Below are positions 1,686-8,671 of a DNA stretch of 32,000 nucleotides, in pieces. Location of the stretch: positions 4,256,497-4,288,496 of the forward strand of contig NC_003902.1 in the NCBI RefSeq assembly GCF_000007145.1. The letters run 5' to 3'. Source of the DNA: Xanthomonas campestris pv. campestris str. ATCC 33913 (lineage in GTDB: Bacteria > Pseudomonadota > Gammaproteobacteria > Xanthomonadales > Xanthomonadaceae). Under the pieces are notes generated by a model that saw only the letters and a list, made by a program, of their open reading frames with translations, was not told where the DNA came from and searched no databases. The number at the start of each line of letters is the position of its first letter. Positions within the stretch are counted from its first letter, which is position 1. The position numbers were made by a program, and so were the translations under genes.

Positions 1686-1717
1686 CAAAAAACCCACCGG
1701 TTTGACGGAGGTGGGTA
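1686..1717 (-). terminator. rho-independent terminator-like hairpin (minus strand)
   Basis: Minus strand reads ACCCACC, an 11-nt loop, GGTGGGT, then a T6 run. The 5' arm overlaps the 9-bp IS4 target duplication. Confidence 0.5.
1709..1717. repeat. half of the IS4 9-bp target-site duplication (AGGTGGGTA)
   Basis: Directly abuts the IS4 copy 1 terminus at 1718. Its exact reverse complement lies at 8663..8671, abutting IS4 copy 2. Confidence 0.7.
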
Positions 1718-3067
1718 CTAAGGTATCCCCACGTTTTACACCGTAAGCGTCATCTGCTCGCGCACTGCCGCAGGCAGTGCGCGCAAGCGCCCTATCCACC
1801 GTGAGACGGGTTCCATCGGCCACTGCCTGACCAGCGCTTCTCGGCCGATGCGTAGCGTGGAGTAAAGCTTGCGTGTGCTGTTGCGAGGAGACAGCCACTG
1901 GGCGATACCGGTCGCTTCGCATCCCAGCCCCGCCAACCAGCTGGCGAATGCAGCCAACGTATTGATCAGCAGCAGGATCTGCAGTCGCTCGCCGCGTCGG
2001 GTCAAACTGTCTTCCAGCGCCTGGCCGTAGCGATGTGATTTCAGATCGCGAAATGCAAGCTCGATCTGCATCCGTCGTGCGTACACATTGACCAACTGCT
2101 TTGCGCTGGGCGCCTGCAGCTGCGGGGATGCAACGATGAGCCAAGGCTCGCGCTCGCGCGCTGCGGCCTTCAGACTCGATGACGCACGCGAGACTTTGGC
2201 GGGTGAGCGGCGATTGCACTGTTTGCGCCCTTGCCGTGCCTTGGCGTAAATCACCAACCTGCAATCGAGTGGATCGCTGCGATTGGCCTGCATCGGCGGT
2301 AACTCGCATGCACGATTGGACGCCAACACATGCAGTTTCCGGCTGTCGATCCACTGATCTGCTTCATCCCGCACGTCCTGCGGCTTGACTTGCGTGCGCC
2401 CGCGCAGTCGCCCAACCCAACACCAGCCCATGGCCGATACAGCGCGGAACCACGGTGTCCGGAAGCCGGCGTCAGTGACCAGGATCGGGCGAACATCGTC
2501 CGGAACCAGTGCCCTCAGTTGTTGCAAGAAGCGTCTTTCTGCACCAGGCGATCCCTGCTGCTTTCCTGGCACTACCATGTCCAGCAAGGTAAGCGTGCGG
2601 CCGCCCACCGGCACCGCTGCGCGCAGCAGACACCACGATTTGTCTGGCTTCAGATCGCTCCAGTCGATGACGATTACCGGCTGCGCGCCGCGCAGCAGCC
2701 AGTGCGCCATCTCGTGGTCGATCACTGATCGCTCGACCTGCAAATTGCGATTACTCAACAGGCGATCAACTGCCTTGAGCGGCGCGCGCACCCGCAGTGC
2801 GCTCGGCCACGAACGTGCGATGTCCATCAGTGTCAGCCTGCGTCCGTGCAACAACGCCTCGACCGCATGCAGCAACGCGCGTTCGCGCAACGCATGCATC
2901 CCGGACAGTGAGTTGGGCAGGCACTTCTGCAATACTTCGCTGGCGCGCATGGTCGTCAACCTTCTCTGGCTTAGTCACCTTGAAGATTGCGCCATGCGCG
3001 CACTTTCTTCCAGGCAATTACGTCGCAAGTGATTGATTTGCCAGGAGGAAATGTGGGGAAACCTCAG
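1718..3067 (-). mobile_element. IS4-family insertion sequence, complete copy (1350 bp)
   Basis: Imperfect terminal inverted repeats: CTAAGGTATCCCCACGTTTT at 1718, and CTGAGGTTTCCCCACATTTC as the reverse complement of the end at 3067. Encodes a 407-aa transposase. A near-identical inverted partial copy lies at 8672..9756. Confidence 0.85.
1736..2959 (-). CDS. IS4-family DDE transposase
   Basis: 407 aa. Candidate DDE residues in VIVIDWSD, ILVTDAGF and IELAFRDLK. Exact Y-(2)-R-(3)-E-(6)-K signature in YARRMQIELAFRDLK. Confidence 0.9.
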   Translation of the reverse strand: MTTMRASEVLQKCLPNSLSGMHALRERALLHAVEALLHGRRLTLMDIARSWPSALRVRAPLKAVDRLLSNRNLQVERSVIDHEMAHWLLRGAQPVIVIDWSDLKPDKSWCLLRAAVPVGGRTLTLLDMVVPGKQQGSPGAERRFLQQLRALVPDDVRPILVTDAGFRTPWFRAVSAMGWCWVGRLRGRTQVKPQDVRDEADQWIDSRKLHVLASNRACELPPMQANRSDPLDCRLVIYAKARQGRKQCNRRSPAKVSRASSSLKAAAREREPWLIVASPQLQAPSAKQLVNVYARRMQIELAFRDLKSHRYGQALEDSLTRRGERLQILLLINTLAAFASWLAGLGCEATGIAQWLSPRNSTRKLYSTLRIGREALVRQWPMEPVSRWIGRLRALPAAVREQMTLTV

Positions 3068-3224
3068 GGTCAGGTTCACTTATTAGTCGATGGCGCTCGG
3101 CTTGCGTGGCCGGTGCGCGGGCCCGATGCCCGCAAAGCGGCGGGTCTTGGTGTCGACTCCCCGTAAAATTGATCCATCCATAACTAGAGGTCTCCGGGCA
3201 CACTAGCCACCAAGGAGACCACCA

Positions 3225-3491
3225 ATGCGCAAGAGCAAGTTCACCGAGAGCCAGATCGTCGCCACGCTGAAGCAGGTCGAGGGCGGTCGCCAGGTCAAGG
3301 ATGTCTGTCGCGAGCTGGGCATTTCCGATGCGACGTACTACGTCTGGAAGTCCAAGTACGGCGGCATGGAGGCCGCTGACGTGCAACGCCTCCGCGACCT
3401 GGAGACTGAGCACAACAAGCTCAAACGTATGTACGCCGATCTCGCGATGGAAAACCATGCATTGAAGGATGTCATCGCAAAAAAGCTGTAG
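3225..3491 (+). CDS. IS3-family transposase OrfA (HTH)
   Basis: 88 aa, beginning MRKSKFTESQIVATLKQVEGG..YYVWKSKYGGMEAADVQRLRDLE. This is typical IS3/IS407 OrfA with a leucine-zipper tail. Confidence 0.9.
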   Translation: MRKSKFTESQIVATLKQVEGGRQVKDVCRELGISDATYYVWKSKYGGMEAADVQRLRDLETEHNKLKRMYADLAMENHALKDVIAKKL

Positions 3492-3565
3492 ACCCGGCGC
3501 ATAAGCGCCCGCTTCTTGCCTGGCTCATCGAGCAGCATGGCTGGAGCGAGCGCCGGGCTTGTGCG

Positions 3566-7193: not shown

Positions 7194-7278
7194 ACCAGGC
7201 CGCTACTCAGGGCGGGGGGGCGTCGGCCGAACAACAAGGCTTTAGCTAACCTGGTCACCTAGCCAGGAAAATATCTTG

Positions 7279-8559
7279 ATGAAACGATTCCGGATGGGTG
7301 AGTTGTATCGCTACGCCAGGCCCGCTCTGCCAGAAGTGCTCGAGATCGATGGAATCTCGAATTTTCACTACGTCGTTGCAGCTCCTGGCTCGCCTTCATT
7401 GCAGCTTGAGAGGCGGATCAATGCGCCGAGCGTAACCCGTGCCATTGATGGGGACCGGGTCGCCGTGGTTCTTCTAGCGAGTAACGAGCACAAGCGTGGA
7501 TCGATGGAAAATCCATGGCACGACACGCTCGCACCTGACGAAGGCTTTGCGCGCTACTTCGGCGACAACAGAACTCCCGATGTAGATCCGGGGACTGCTA
7601 TTGGCAATCGAACCCTGCTTCGCCAATTCGAGTTCCATACTTCTCCGGATCAAGGAAAGCGTGAGCGAGCAGCGCCGGTGCTACTGTTTCGTTCAACGAA
7701 GAAAGGCTTTAAGGAGTTTTCGGGACTTGCGCTTATCGTCGGAGCGCGGCGGGTTACGCAATTCTCTGAGAAGAACGGCGGGTTCTTCACGAACTACCTC
7801 TTCGATCTGGCCGTCTTGTCTTTGACGGAAGAAGACGAAAGCCTAGCGATGCTTTGGATCCATGATCGTCGTGATCCATCGCGTGCGTGTGGCGTTGCTA
7901 ATGCAATGGCACCGAAGGCGTGGCAGCGCTGGGTGAAGTTCGGTAGCCCGGAGATTGAGCGTATCAAGCGACGGGTTGCGCGATATCACATCTTGCCCAA
8001 GCGGGATCAGGTTGCTCCAGTTAGCTCAGAAGGCGGCAAGACCCTGGAAGCCATCTACAGGTTCTACGAACCGAAGCGGCATCGCTTCGAAGCATTGGCA
8101 AGCTTGGCGTGCGAGTCTATGGTTCGCGGTACAGGTGCCGAGTACCACCGTGGTTGGCTAACGCGAGGCACAGGTGATGGCGGCTTGGATTTCGTCGGCC
8201 GCATCGATATTGGTGAAGGGCTATGGGGAACCAAGCTTGTTGTCCTGGGCCAAGCCAAGTGCGAGAAGATCGATGCTCCCACCGGTGGCGTCCACATCGC
8301 CCGGACTGTGGCCCGTCTGCGTCGGGGGTGGCTAGGTGCGTACGTGACTACCTCGTTCTTTTCCGAAGCCGTGCAGCGAGAAGTACACGACGATCAGTAC
8401 CCCGTTTTGTTGCTCAATGGAGCCGGCTTGGCTGCCGAGGTGACCAAGTTGCGGCTGGAAGGCGGCTTCGCAAGTACAGAACAGTTTCTTGAACACATTG
8501 ACGCTGATTATGAGGCGCAGGTCAGCAGCAGACGGCCAGAAGAAGTTCTGTGGGAATAG
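7279..8559 (+). CDS. modification-dependent (type IV/IIM-like) restriction endonuclease: SRA-like N-terminal domain plus Mrr/MspJI-like PD-(D/E)xK nuclease
   Basis: The ATG at 7279 has AGGAAA 8 nt upstream; the track starts one codon earlier at a TTG. The C-terminus FEALASLACESMV..GDGGLDFVGRID..(about 20 aa)..VLGQAKC carries the D...QxK nuclease motif. The N-terminus NPWHD..FARYFGDNRTP..GNRTLL..PVLLFRS..FSGLALI resembles SRA/YDG-type modified-base readers. Confidence 0.55.
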   Translation: MKRFRMGELYRYARPALPEVLEIDGISNFHYVVAAPGSPSLQLERRINAPSVTRAIDGDRVAVVLLASNEHKRGSMENPWHDTLAPDEGFARYFGDNRTPDVDPGTAIGNRTLLRQFEFHTSPDQGKRERAAPVLLFRSTKKGFKEFSGLALIVGARRVTQFSEKNGGFFTNYLFDLAVLSLTEEDESLAMLWIHDRRDPSRACGVANAMAPKAWQRWVKFGSPEIERIKRRVARYHILPKRDQVAPVSSEGGKTLEAIYRFYEPKRHRFEALASLACESMVRGTGAEYHRGWLTRGTGDGGLDFVGRIDIGEGLWGTKLVVLGQAKCEKIDAPTGGVHIARTVARLRRGWLGAYVTTSFFSEAVQREVHDDQYPVLLLNGAGLAAEVTKLRLEGGFASTEQFLEHIDADYEAQVSSRRPEEVLWE

Positions 8560-8662
8560 CGCGACGGCTAGCTTAGTCCAAGCCTCGCCTCCGGCAGTTG
8601 ACATCGTATCTATCGCATCGCAATCTTTGCCTCAAGGAGCGTCGAAACTCCTCAGAGAGCGG

Positions 8663-8671
8663 TACCCACCT
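8663..8671. repeat. second half of the IS4 9-bp target-site duplication (TACCCACCT)
   Basis: Directly abuts the IS4 copy 2 terminus at 8672. It is the reverse complement of 1709..1717. Confidence 0.7.

Follow-up and report, generated by a model that had tools for sequence, protein, structure and literature searches.

How the two halves of one 9-bp target duplication came to lie beside different copies of an insertion sequence is the question raised by the 32,000-nucleotide stretch of Xanthomonas campestris pv. campestris DNA analysed here (the window; w marks its positions). The earlier note on this DNA explained the arrangement by an inversion of 3068-8671 mediated by an IS4-type element. 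As it had described, AGGTGGGTA at 1709-1717 abuts one IS end, and the reverse complement of this 9-mer, TACCCACCT at 8663-8671, abuts another (Table 1). Each is unique in the window, and two predefined junctions would share an exact 9-mer by chance with a probability of about 4^-9 (4e-6). The IRL boundary is exactly fixed, because the two IS copies diverge immediately beyond IRL.

Table 1. Coordinates of the features of the locus, in window positions.
Feature	Position	Strand	Remarks
Exported protein, 199 aa	89..688	-	
SymE-like protein, 132 aa	854..1252	-	PF08845, 55.9 bits (cut-off 29)
90-aa XAC0095-family ORF	1249..1521	-	NF047335, 42.3 bits
sRNA-Xcc1 homologue (Rfam RF02221)	1565..1647	-	Between terminator-like hairpin and 90-aa ORF; upstream of symE
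Hairpin: ACCCACC, 11-nt loop, GGTGGGT, then T6	1686..1717	-	Terminator-like
Half of 9-bp target duplication, AGGTGGGTA (TACCCACCT on minus strand)	1709..1717		Abuts IRR of full IS1481
Full-length IS1481 (IS4 family), 1350 bp	1718..3067	-	IRR at 1718, IRL at 3067
IS1481 transposase gene, 404 aa	1736-2950	-	Inside full copy
Inverted segment, 5604 bp	3068..8671		Base-for-base equal to L005 5790-11393, opposite orientation relative to both flanks
GGTCAGGTT, reverse complement of AACCTGACC	3068..3076		Duplication half of older IS1481 insertion, still joined to an IRL
ISxcC1 (IS3 family)	3151..4350	+	16-bp terminal inverted repeats
Phage baseplate gpV-like gene, 3' fragment	4351..4700	+	Cut by ISxcC1
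293-aa low-GC (49%) protein	4865..5746	-	Type III secretion effector according to one source
IS1404 (IS3 family)	6040..7208	+	
Restriction endonuclease XCC3577 (AAM42847.1)	7279..8559	+	AspBHI-type N-terminal and Mrr-type catalytic domain
Second half of 9-bp target duplication, TACCCACCT	8663..8671		Abuts IRL of truncated, inverted IS1481
Truncated IS1481, positions 1-1085 only	8672..9756	+	IRL at 8672
329-aa fusion ORF AAM42848.1 (XCC3578)	8789-9778		Of truncated IS1481
ISxac3 (IS3 family)	9757..12219	-	25-bp IRs; 9757 end is the IS1481 truncation point

The IS4 assignment is borne out, and the element is IS1481, as judged by transposase models, a YREK motif, the inverted repeats and 9-bp duplications. 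Its transposase, named IS1481/IS1481A in the source annotation, scores 358 bits against NCBIfam NF033591 transpos_IS4_2 (cut-off 152) and 77.6 bits against PF01609, and carries the Y-(2)-R-(3)-E-(6)-K signature (YARRMQIELAFRDLK, residues 290-304) in its C-terminal catalytic region; the terminal inverted repeats begin CTGAG and match at 13 of their first 15 bases. The second copy had been described as inverted and near-identical; it is indeed inverted and differs from the full copy by one mismatch over 1085 bp (IS position 978; T at w9649, C at w2090), but it proves to be an older truncated copy and not a second full one. It is cut by ISxac3, and its remaining 265 bp are absent throughout the window. 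This copy is older than the new insertion because its junctions with w3068 and ISxac3 are also present in L002, L003, L005, L036 and L037. An intact IS1481 occupies the older site in L013 with AACCTGACC on both sides; the IRR and flank of the window's older copy have been lost to ISxac3, leaving the IRL-side AACCTGACC as its only surviving duplication half.

Comparison with IS-free orthologous loci bears directly on the inversion. TACCCACCT occurs once, at an empty site reading ...GAGAGCGG-TACCCACCT-CCGTCAAACCGGTGGGTTTTTT..., in at least 11 related Xanthomonas loci (nine from X. campestris, L001-L004 and L006-L010, together with X. arboricola L026 and X. euroxanthea L027); there the outer flanks of the split duplication are contiguous, as is expected of inversion by recombination. 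In these loci the restriction gene is directly followed by the hairpin and T6 tract, the 90-aa ORF, the SymE-like gene and the exported protein gene, all co-oriented. This is the order that undoing the inversion had been predicted to restore, with a sRNA-Xcc1 homologue to be added; all empty-site genomes share it, B100-type genomes have it as well, and the present order without IS1481 copies was found in none of the related genomes compared.

The intermediate state is available in CP155931.1 (L005/L021/L033), in which a full IS1481 lies in the hairpin with TACCCACCT as a direct repeat at both of its ends and the segment is uninverted. CP155931.1 and the window are identical over 16.9 kb but for orientation, with no mismatch in either flank, in the 5604-bp segment or in the two IS copies; the window is the CP155931.1 state plus an inversion of 3068-8671. 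At IS position 978 the uninverted genome has T in the old truncated copy and C in the new full copy, and the window likewise has T in the copy beside ISxac3 and C in the full one, which fits a crossover between IS positions 1 and 977. The empty sites, the CP155931.1 intermediate and this SNP support the proposed inversion, and the single and directly repeated TACCCACCT confirm one ordinary IS4-type duplication whose halves now sit on two copies.

The two 9-mers might instead reflect two independent IS1481 insertions that chose the same site by target preference, with no inversion. IS1481 does prefer approximately NACCYGACC, often with a preceding G and a following CC, and near-identical 9-mers (AACCTGACC, AACCTGACA and GACCTGACC) recur at unrelated sites. 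However, TACCCACCT is a poor match to this consensus, and a tabulation of 10 other IS1481 copies (nine full, one internally deleted) found it beside none of them, so that a preferred target does not account for it; nine of the 10 have 9-bp duplications of their own (eight of the nine full copies and the internally deleted copy from Xanthomonas sp. Leaf131) and one has none. Moreover, the outer flanks of the two halves adjoin in the 11 or more empty-site genomes, and the sequences past the 9-mers rebuild a hairpin conserved in three species. The comparison of empty with filled sites refutes the coincidence, whose probability we regard as negligible.

That hairpin, reported by the earlier note as a stem with a T6 tract and the 9-mer as its 5' arm, is present and is better called terminator-like; the empty sites place the IS1481 insertion within it. 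It survives intact on the IRR side because its 5' arm lies within the duplicated 9-mer. A terminator scan of the uninterrupted site of related genomes returned a shorter stem that overlaps this one and runs up to the same T tract; the minimum-free-energy fold contains the 7-bp stem, and the folding z-score of the 61-nt stretch, -0.67, is unremarkable. X. arboricola and X. euroxanthea have an identical stem, which makes three species, without covariation.

A transposase-mediated intramolecular event, be it a replicative inversion or a deletion/inversion of the IS10 type, could have created the second copy together with the inverted segment in one step, and in transposition models replicative intramolecular inversion predicts the same topology, with one duplication half inside and one outside. 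IS10/IS50-type elements of the IS4 family transpose by cut-and-paste, however, and the truncated copy is already found in genomes without the insertion in the hairpin and has no IRR; being pre-existing and without IRR, it was neither a product of such an event nor the donor of the full copy. Since, in addition, an insertion-only intermediate exists in CP155931.1 and no new target duplication was found at any junction of the inversion, this route is highly improbable.

A more serious objection is that the real arrangement is that of CP155931.1 and that the 2002 shotgun assembly misjoined the 1085-bp inverted repeats in an IS-packed region. Sequence alone cannot tell whether the inversion is real or the assembly mis-oriented, because recombination within the 1085-bp repeat makes no new junction, and a wrong join within the repeat would look the same as a crossover. 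The segment is flanked by repeats of 1.1-3.5 kb and holds two more multicopy insertion sequences, so that little unique sequence was available for orienting it. Its nearest genome, CP155931.1, identical over 16.9 kb save for orientation and with a chromosome 806 bp shorter than that of the window's source, may be the same strain. Among 23 contigs encoding an identical restriction protein, CP155931.1 is the only one with the IS at the site, uninverted, and none of the independent assemblies is inverted here; CP011946.1 (L050) shares the order of the window, with N runs at reference-unique genes, and is not independent support because it is N-riddled and looks reference-guided. Against misassembly, the window corresponds to the Sanger-sequenced ATCC 33913 genome of 2002, which was reportedly finished with large-insert clone support, and the identity of CP155931.1 as the same strain is only a possibility. 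Recombination between inverted IS copies is also common in X. campestris; in the independently sequenced strain B100 the same truncated IS1481 has swapped its IRL flank with another IS1481 site (TauD locus), indicating that IS1481 recombination of such kind occurs in this species. We consider misassembly unlikely, if a good deal less so than the two rivals discussed above; a possible orientation discrepancy between the X. campestris type-strain reference and a newer, near-identical assembly matters for use of the reference in synteny and strain typing.

We propose that the window probably records an IS1481 insertion followed by inversion through homologous recombination in an X. campestris pv. 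campestris lineage. The ancestral order, shown by the comparison of related genomes, was a 337-aa gene, ISxac3, the truncated IS1481 (positions 1085 to 1, IRL inward), ISxcC1, the gpV fragment, the effector, IS1404, the restriction gene, hairpin-T6, sRNA-Xcc1, the XAC0095 ORF, SymE and the exported protein. A full IS1481 then inserted, in the IS4 manner, into the hairpin's 5' arm downstream of the restriction gene, duplicating TACCCACCT and lying 5.6 kb from the old truncated copy in the opposite orientation, a step likewise shown; the restriction gene lost its putative terminator at this point, before the inversion. As to the final step, we infer homologous recombination between the inverted copies, within IS positions 1-977, that flipped the intervening 5604 bp; it was presumably RecA-dependent, a role that is assumed. 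The outcome would be one duplication half per copy, the truncated copy adjoining the restriction gene and the full one the sRNA/SymE cluster. The inversion breaks no gene and leaves all four IS/flank junctions unchanged, altering only gene order and orientation; the relocation of the effector gene, mentioned in the earlier note, has no evident functional consequence because no local junction is altered. It is quite improbable that the segment is a naturally reversible, IS1481-bounded cassette whose two orientations (AE008922-type and CP155931.1-type) coexist or alternate in the type-strain lineage, each flip changing expression of the restriction gene or the type III effector. Such a cassette would act as a crude phase-variation-like switch, for example via read-through that leaves or enters the IS ends, or via orientation relative to replication.

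The genes of the locus can now be annotated more clearly. The restriction gene stops at 8557-8559, 112 nt ahead of the end of the 9-mer, as had been noted. Its product matches PF18062 (84.5 bits, residues 60-222) and PF04471 (27.2 bits, residues 270-387), and thus has the predicted domain make-up of MspJI/AspBHI-type modification-dependent restriction enzymes, with N-terminal recognition and C-terminal Mrr/PD-(D/E)XK domains; its REBASE name is XcaCORF3577P (PMC13133917). The consecutive accessions AAM42847, AAM42848 and AAM42849 follow the gene order of the window, AAM42849.1 being a 95-aa 'truncated ISxac3 transposase', and a further IS3-family element interrupts ISxac3 at about 10050-11274. 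The 83 bp at w3068-3150, between the full IS1481 and ISxcC1, are a unique stretch. The 293-aa putative effector, which we take to be probably xopAL2, had no match in a Pfam/NCBIfam search.

On the other side of the full IS1481, the sRNA-Xcc1 homologue matches its covariance model over the full length (79.3 bits, gathering score 53, model positions 1-87), and the stop of the XAC0095-family ORF overlaps the SymE start by 4 nt. The SymE-like protein scores 22 bits against the E. coli SymE equivalog NF010128, below its cut-off of 132, and an Rfam search of the SymE locus found no SymR, sRNA-Xcc1 lying upstream instead. In related genomes the gene for the 199-aa exported protein is followed after 35 nt by that of a 384-aa XVIPCD type IV secretion effector, which falls past the window's left edge; this position directly upstream indicates that the exported protein is probably the effector's immunity partner. 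The restriction gene, the terminator-like hairpin, an extra-integron sRNA-Xcc1/XAC0095/symE module and a putative type IV secretion effector/immunity pair can thus be told apart. The suggestion that the reconstructed neighbourhood looks like a defence islet overreaches: the restriction gene/SymE adjacency is conserved in three species, but sRNA-Xcc1/symE is a known mobile cassette module, the 90-aa ORF is an XAC0095-family member, and the exported protein is likelier an immunity partner.

The E. coli K-12 immigration control region, mrr-hsdRMS-symE-mcrBC, likewise sets a SymE-domain gene beside a modification-dependent Mrr-type restriction gene (a type assigned here by domains). The Xanthomonas locus differs in having neither hsd nor mcrBC, in its candidate RNA partner, the upstream sRNA-Xcc1 in place of the antisense SymR, and in the probable type IV secretion effector/immunity pair further downstream. 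Another relative is the mobile integron-cassette module sRNA-Xcc1/symE of Xanthomonas (bioRxiv 10.1101/2025.06.18.660453, where Chen et al. 2011 is cited as a source on the module). Here too the sRNA precedes a SymE-domain gene in the same orientation, whereas the window copy is outside the integron, adjoins a restriction gene and has an XAC0095-family ORF between sRNA and symE, translationally coupled to the latter.

IS1481 resembles the IS10/IS50-type IS4 elements in its single DDE transposase of about 400 aa with a YREK signature, its length of about 1.3 kb, and its 9-bp duplication of a degenerate preferred target; its CTGAG-starting repeats resemble the IS10 outside end, and its consensus differs from the symmetric NGCTNAGCN of IS10. 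We know of no study of IS1481 transposition chemistry. IS-bounded inversions are known in E. coli, Yersinia and Bordetella, and one bounded by IS1478 is said to separate Xcc 8004 from ATCC 33913. The mechanism is textbook and the rearrangement ordinary, though well documented, with no new mechanism or gene function; its modest significance is that of a clean worked example of how IS insertion and inverted-copy recombination reshuffle a Xanthomonas locus. As in the known cases, the breakpoints lie within the IS copies, each recombinant copy has non-matching flanks, no new junction sequence arises, and the event is reversible in principle. The IS1481 inversion differs from them in being small (5.6 kb) and in having a one-ended, truncated partner, which still serves as a recombination substrate both here and in B100; unusually, the empty, insertion-only and inverted states can all be compared, and a SNP locates the crossover.

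IS1481 occurs in the window as a full copy and a truncated copy in inverted orientation (see table). A repeat search of the window delimits inverted arms of 1085 nt each (1983-3067 and 8672-9756), which, compared base by base, differ only at IS position 978 (C at 2090, T at 9649). The 404-aa transposase matches the NCBIfam IS4-family model with 358 bits (cut-off 152) as well as Pfam DDE_Tnp_1, and possesses the Y-(2)-R-(3)-E-(6)-K signature; the terminal repeats agree at 13 of their first 15 bases, and the exact protein is named IS1481 or IS1481A transposase of Xanthomonas campestris in public sources. 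The gene order of the window is that of the consecutive accession numbers AAM42847.1, AAM42848.1 and AAM42849.1, and in a published table (PMC13133917) XCC3576 is entered as IS1404, XCC3577 as a restriction gene and XCC3578 as IS1481; on that basis we regard the window as part of the 2002 genome of the X. campestris pv. campestris type strain. AGGTGGGTA at 1709-1717 abuts the IRR end of the full copy and TACCCACCT at 8663-8671 abuts the IRL end of the truncated copy; both were located where the earlier note had placed them, with the geometry it described, and each occurs once in the window. The note had taken the second copy for a complete IS, which is wrong: it stops at IS position 1085, where an IS3-family element (TGATACGCCC...) starts, and the terminal 265 bp of IS1481 beyond that position have no other occurrence anywhere in the window. 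Since the sequence past ISxac3 (12220 onwards) is not IS1481 either, the IRR-proximal 265 bp of the truncated copy and the adjoining flank would have been lost by a separate deletion or exchange. Strain 8004 has an intact ISxac3, free of the inserted IS3-family element.

Window positions of the IS1481 copies, neighbouring elements and other features
Feature	Position	Strand	Remarks
sRNA-Xcc1 homologue (Rfam RF02221)	1565-1647	minus	full-length; 79 bits
Full IS1481	1718-3067	minus (transposase)	1350 bp
ISxcC1	3151-4350		
IS1404	about 6040-7208		
Restriction protein	7279-8559		AAM42847.1 (XCC3577), strain ATCC 33913; just upstream of truncated transposase ORF
Truncated IS1481	8672-9756		ends at IS position 1085; inverted relative to full copy
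Truncated IS1481 transposase ORF			329 aa; AAM42848.1, strain ATCC 33913
Truncated ISxac3 ORF			95 aa; AAM42849.1, strain ATCC 33913; just downstream of truncated transposase ORF
ISxac3	9757-12219		carries inserted IS3-family element at about 10050-11274
sRNA sX9 (RF02228), first match	16456-16530	plus	92.8 bits; begins exactly where IS5-family element ends
sRNA sX9 (RF02228), second match	29774-29845	plus	45.4 bits
Direct repeat D3	16454-16494, 29772-29812		41 nt
CAGCAA hexanucleotide array	18824-19173		about 58 copies, 87% matches

Elsewhere in the window, both sX9 matches coincide with the direct repeat D3. The CAGCAA array is likely a VNTR, and the ORFs called across it on both strands, with low-complexity A/I/V or A/T runs, are probably spurious.

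The earlier note had read the two 9-mers as the halves of one target duplication, separated by an IS4-mediated inversion of 3068-8671. With the exact restriction protein as query, ten loci with flanks were obtained. The uninterrupted site ...GAGAGCGG-TACCCACCT-CCGTCAAACCGGTGGGTTTTTT..., with one copy of the 9-mer, is present in nine of them (among them strain 8004 and two further complete genomes); immediately behind the restriction gene come, on the same strand, the 90-aa ORF, the SymE-domain gene, the gene for the exported protein (199 aa) and that for an XVIPCD protein. X. arboricola and X. euroxanthea share this empty site and gene order, and the order is kept in B100-type genomes, where an IS5-family element splits the restriction gene. 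The tenth locus, CP155931.1, bears a full IS1481 exactly at the site, with TACCCACCT as a direct repeat on both sides and the 5.6-kb segment in ancestral orientation; it has zero mismatches to the window over 1-1717, 3068-8671, the right flank and both copies of the IS, and overlaps it as far as 16874 with a single 1-bp indel. Alignment to IS-free or differently arranged orthologous loci, as the note had suggested, thus recovers both the empty and the inserted, uninverted state, and the split 9-mer is indeed one target duplication, single at the empty sites and directly repeated around the IS in CP155931.1. Undoing the inversion restores the run from the restriction gene through the 90-aa ORF and SymE to the exported protein, which is the order of the empty-site genomes.

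In the order of events reconstructed, an old IS1481 copy at the 3068 site was first truncated by, or next to, ISxac3; a new full IS1481 then entered the hairpin behind the restriction gene, facing the opposite way to the old copy (the state of CP155931.1), and an exchange between the two copies would have flipped the intervening 5604 bp to give the window. This order follows from comparison loci without the terminator insertion (L002, L003, L036 and L037) that already have the truncated copy, its IRL joined to 3068 and its position 1085 to ISxac3. The product written out for a crossover at IS position p is exactly the structure of the window. IS position 978 in the uninverted genome is T in the old copy and C in the new one, and since the truncated copy beside ISxac3 in the window keeps T, the crossover would lie within IS positions 1-977. 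Comparison of CP155931.1 with the window reveals no junction sequence difference and no additional duplication, which agrees with the prediction of homologous recombination and not with that of a transposase-mediated event; a transposase-mediated inversion was considered and rejected. An intact old copy survives in locus L013 with AACCTGACC on both sides, and window 3068-3076 is the reverse complement of AACCTGACC. At the 3068 site of this locus (CP155990.1, 2525-5233) two full IS1481 lie in direct tandem, the spacer being exactly the 9-bp duplication, and a DUF4411 gene is on the other flank.

A recurrent 9-mer at unrelated copies would have pointed to a preferred target rather than a duplication. 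Flanks were tabulated for ten other IS1481 copies (nine full, one deleted) from strains other than the source genome; the single hit of a genome-contig scan with the IS1481 IRR end was a deleted copy from Xanthomonas sp. Leaf131. Perfect 9-bp duplications surround the deleted copy and eight of the nine full ones: TACCCGACC, ATCCCGCAC, AACCTGACC (twice), AACCTGACA, GACCTGACC, GGGCTGACC, AACCTGGAC and AACTAGCTC. A loose asymmetric target consensus, about NACCYGACC and often with G before and CC after, emerges from loci L005, L011-L017, L020 and L025. TACCCACCT fits it poorly and flanks none of the ten copies; with the empty sites contiguous, a coincidental choice of the same target was rejected, and target preference is in any case a moot point given those empty sites. 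Several unrelated IS1481 sites have ...GTGAACCTGACC..., suggesting insertion into a dispersed repeat. The full IS1481 at 3884-5233 of L018 (CP156007.1) has unlike flanks, CACCTGACC and AACCTGGAA, and is presumably the scar of a further IS1481-mediated rearrangement.

IS1481 recombination of such a kind is real in the species, since in the independently sequenced B100 this truncated copy has traded the flank at its IRL with the IS1481 site at the TauD locus, that flank, ATCCCGCAC, being identical to the L012 site; we regard the inversion in the window as probably genuine. That the segment was mis-oriented in the 2002 ATCC 33913 assembly is in our judgement less likely but a real rival, and would fit the absence of the inverted order from all independent assemblies found with the restriction protein (at two flank sizes), the rare effector allele, the truncated transposase and the truncated ISxac3 ORF as queries. 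The identical restriction protein is encoded on 23 contigs, where the IS is at the site only in CP155931.1 and there uninverted; this chromosome, 806 bp shorter and identical to ATCC 33913 over the compared region, may on sequence grounds be that of the same strain re-sequenced, and an erroneous join inside the 1085-bp inverted repeat, in a region dense with IS elements, could not be told from a crossover. Whether genuine or mis-oriented, the sequence as given was read rightly in the earlier note. A genuine inversion would follow a textbook mechanism, and public records already annotate the elements; the locus is an ordinary instance, unusually well documented.

Other IS1481 arrangements were encountered. 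In B100 (AM920689.1, 7884 onwards) the IS1481(1-1085)::ISxac3 junction bears the TauD-locus flank at IRL (compare L012 and L048) and a full IS1481 occupies the 3068 site beside DUF4411, which implies that IS1481 mediated a large exchange between loci far apart. CP011946.1 has the window's order and was rejected as evidence: it contains 4640 N in runs over the restriction gene, effector and SymE region and looks like a reference-guided consensus. In this locus (11400-11425 and 18341-18420) the IS1481 IRR abuts TACCCACCT and then a diverged hairpin loop, TTCGTGTACCC, and next to the IRL of the truncated copy stands another 9-mer, TACCCGCCC, in a flank otherwise unmatched; these junctions may stem from mapping artefacts or from a diverged allele whose homologous site took a second insertion. 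Varied IRL flanks of the truncated copy in short metagenome and Logan contigs were not counted as rearrangements, as a 1-kb repeat permits chimeric short-read paths. The truncated IS1481 of strain 8004 (CP000050.1, 4655-5789 of the locus) and of L004 runs from 1085 to 902, then from 1 to 901 in the opposite sense, then from 50 to 1; positions 51-901 are thus inverted, with an additional inverted 50-bp IRL end and no target duplication, resembling the outcome of a one-ended or foldback event at the end of the IS. Literature searches on the locus tags of the region, CP155931 and xopAL2 locus numbers found nothing, and a paper on restriction-modification rearrangement (PMC2853133) concerns a different Xanthomonas locus.

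No gene is interrupted by the inversion; the restriction gene, IS1404, the 293-aa protein gene, the gpV fragment and ISxcC1 change only their orientation and order relative to the flanks, and every local junction, including that of restriction gene and IRL, is unchanged from the uninverted arrangement. The 293-aa protein is named a type III effector by one source, and we take it to be probably xopAL2. At the empty site a hairpin (7-bp stem, 11-nt loop) precedes T6 and has its 5' arm in the 9-mer; the hairpin lies 104 nt past the restriction gene stop codon. A consensus scan reports a terminator-like site there, with a shorter overlapping stem and the same terminal T-run; the 7-bp stem is contained in the minimum-free-energy fold of a 61-nt stretch whose folding energy is not unusual, and it is identical across three species, the loop having one substitution. 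As the whole 5' arm lies within the duplication, the hairpin is intact on the IRR side; the restriction gene now reads straight into IS1481.

The restored neighbourhood had been interpreted as a disrupted defence islet, by analogy with E. coli, where symE sits among hsd, mcr and mrr. The parallel is fair in that the adjacency of the restriction gene and the SymE module is kept in three species, and an AspBHI-type N-terminal domain together with an Mrr-type nuclease domain makes it plausible that the restriction protein is a modification-dependent enzyme. The analogy is weakened in that the SymE protein of the window does not reach the threshold of the E. coli SymE equivalog model, and what else the cluster contains speaks for competition between bacteria and not for restriction. 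The exported protein is encoded 35 nt upstream of an XVIPCD type IV secretion effector and, from its position, is more likely the immunity protein of that effector than a restriction-related gene. On the other side of the restriction gene, X. arboricola and X. euroxanthea have a NERD/UvrD-type helicase and DUF6119. In both loci the helicase, of 625 aa, is divergent upstream, and genes for DUF6119 or phage P4 cII-like proteins are close by; in X. campestris IS1404, the effector gene and the gpV fragment stand in place of this defence-island-like context. The 90-aa ORF is a member of the XAC0095 family whose stop overlaps the SymE start by 4 nt; in L014 an XAC0095-domain gene lies ahead of another XVIPCD effector. 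The sRNA-Xcc1 homologue lies between the hairpin-T6 and the genes for XAC0095 and SymE, about 60 nt from where IS1481 is inserted. sRNA-Xcc1 upstream of symE is described in a recent preprint (10.1101/2025.06.18.660453) as the most widespread Xanthomonas integron cassette, and the copy in the window is the same module, but extra-integron.
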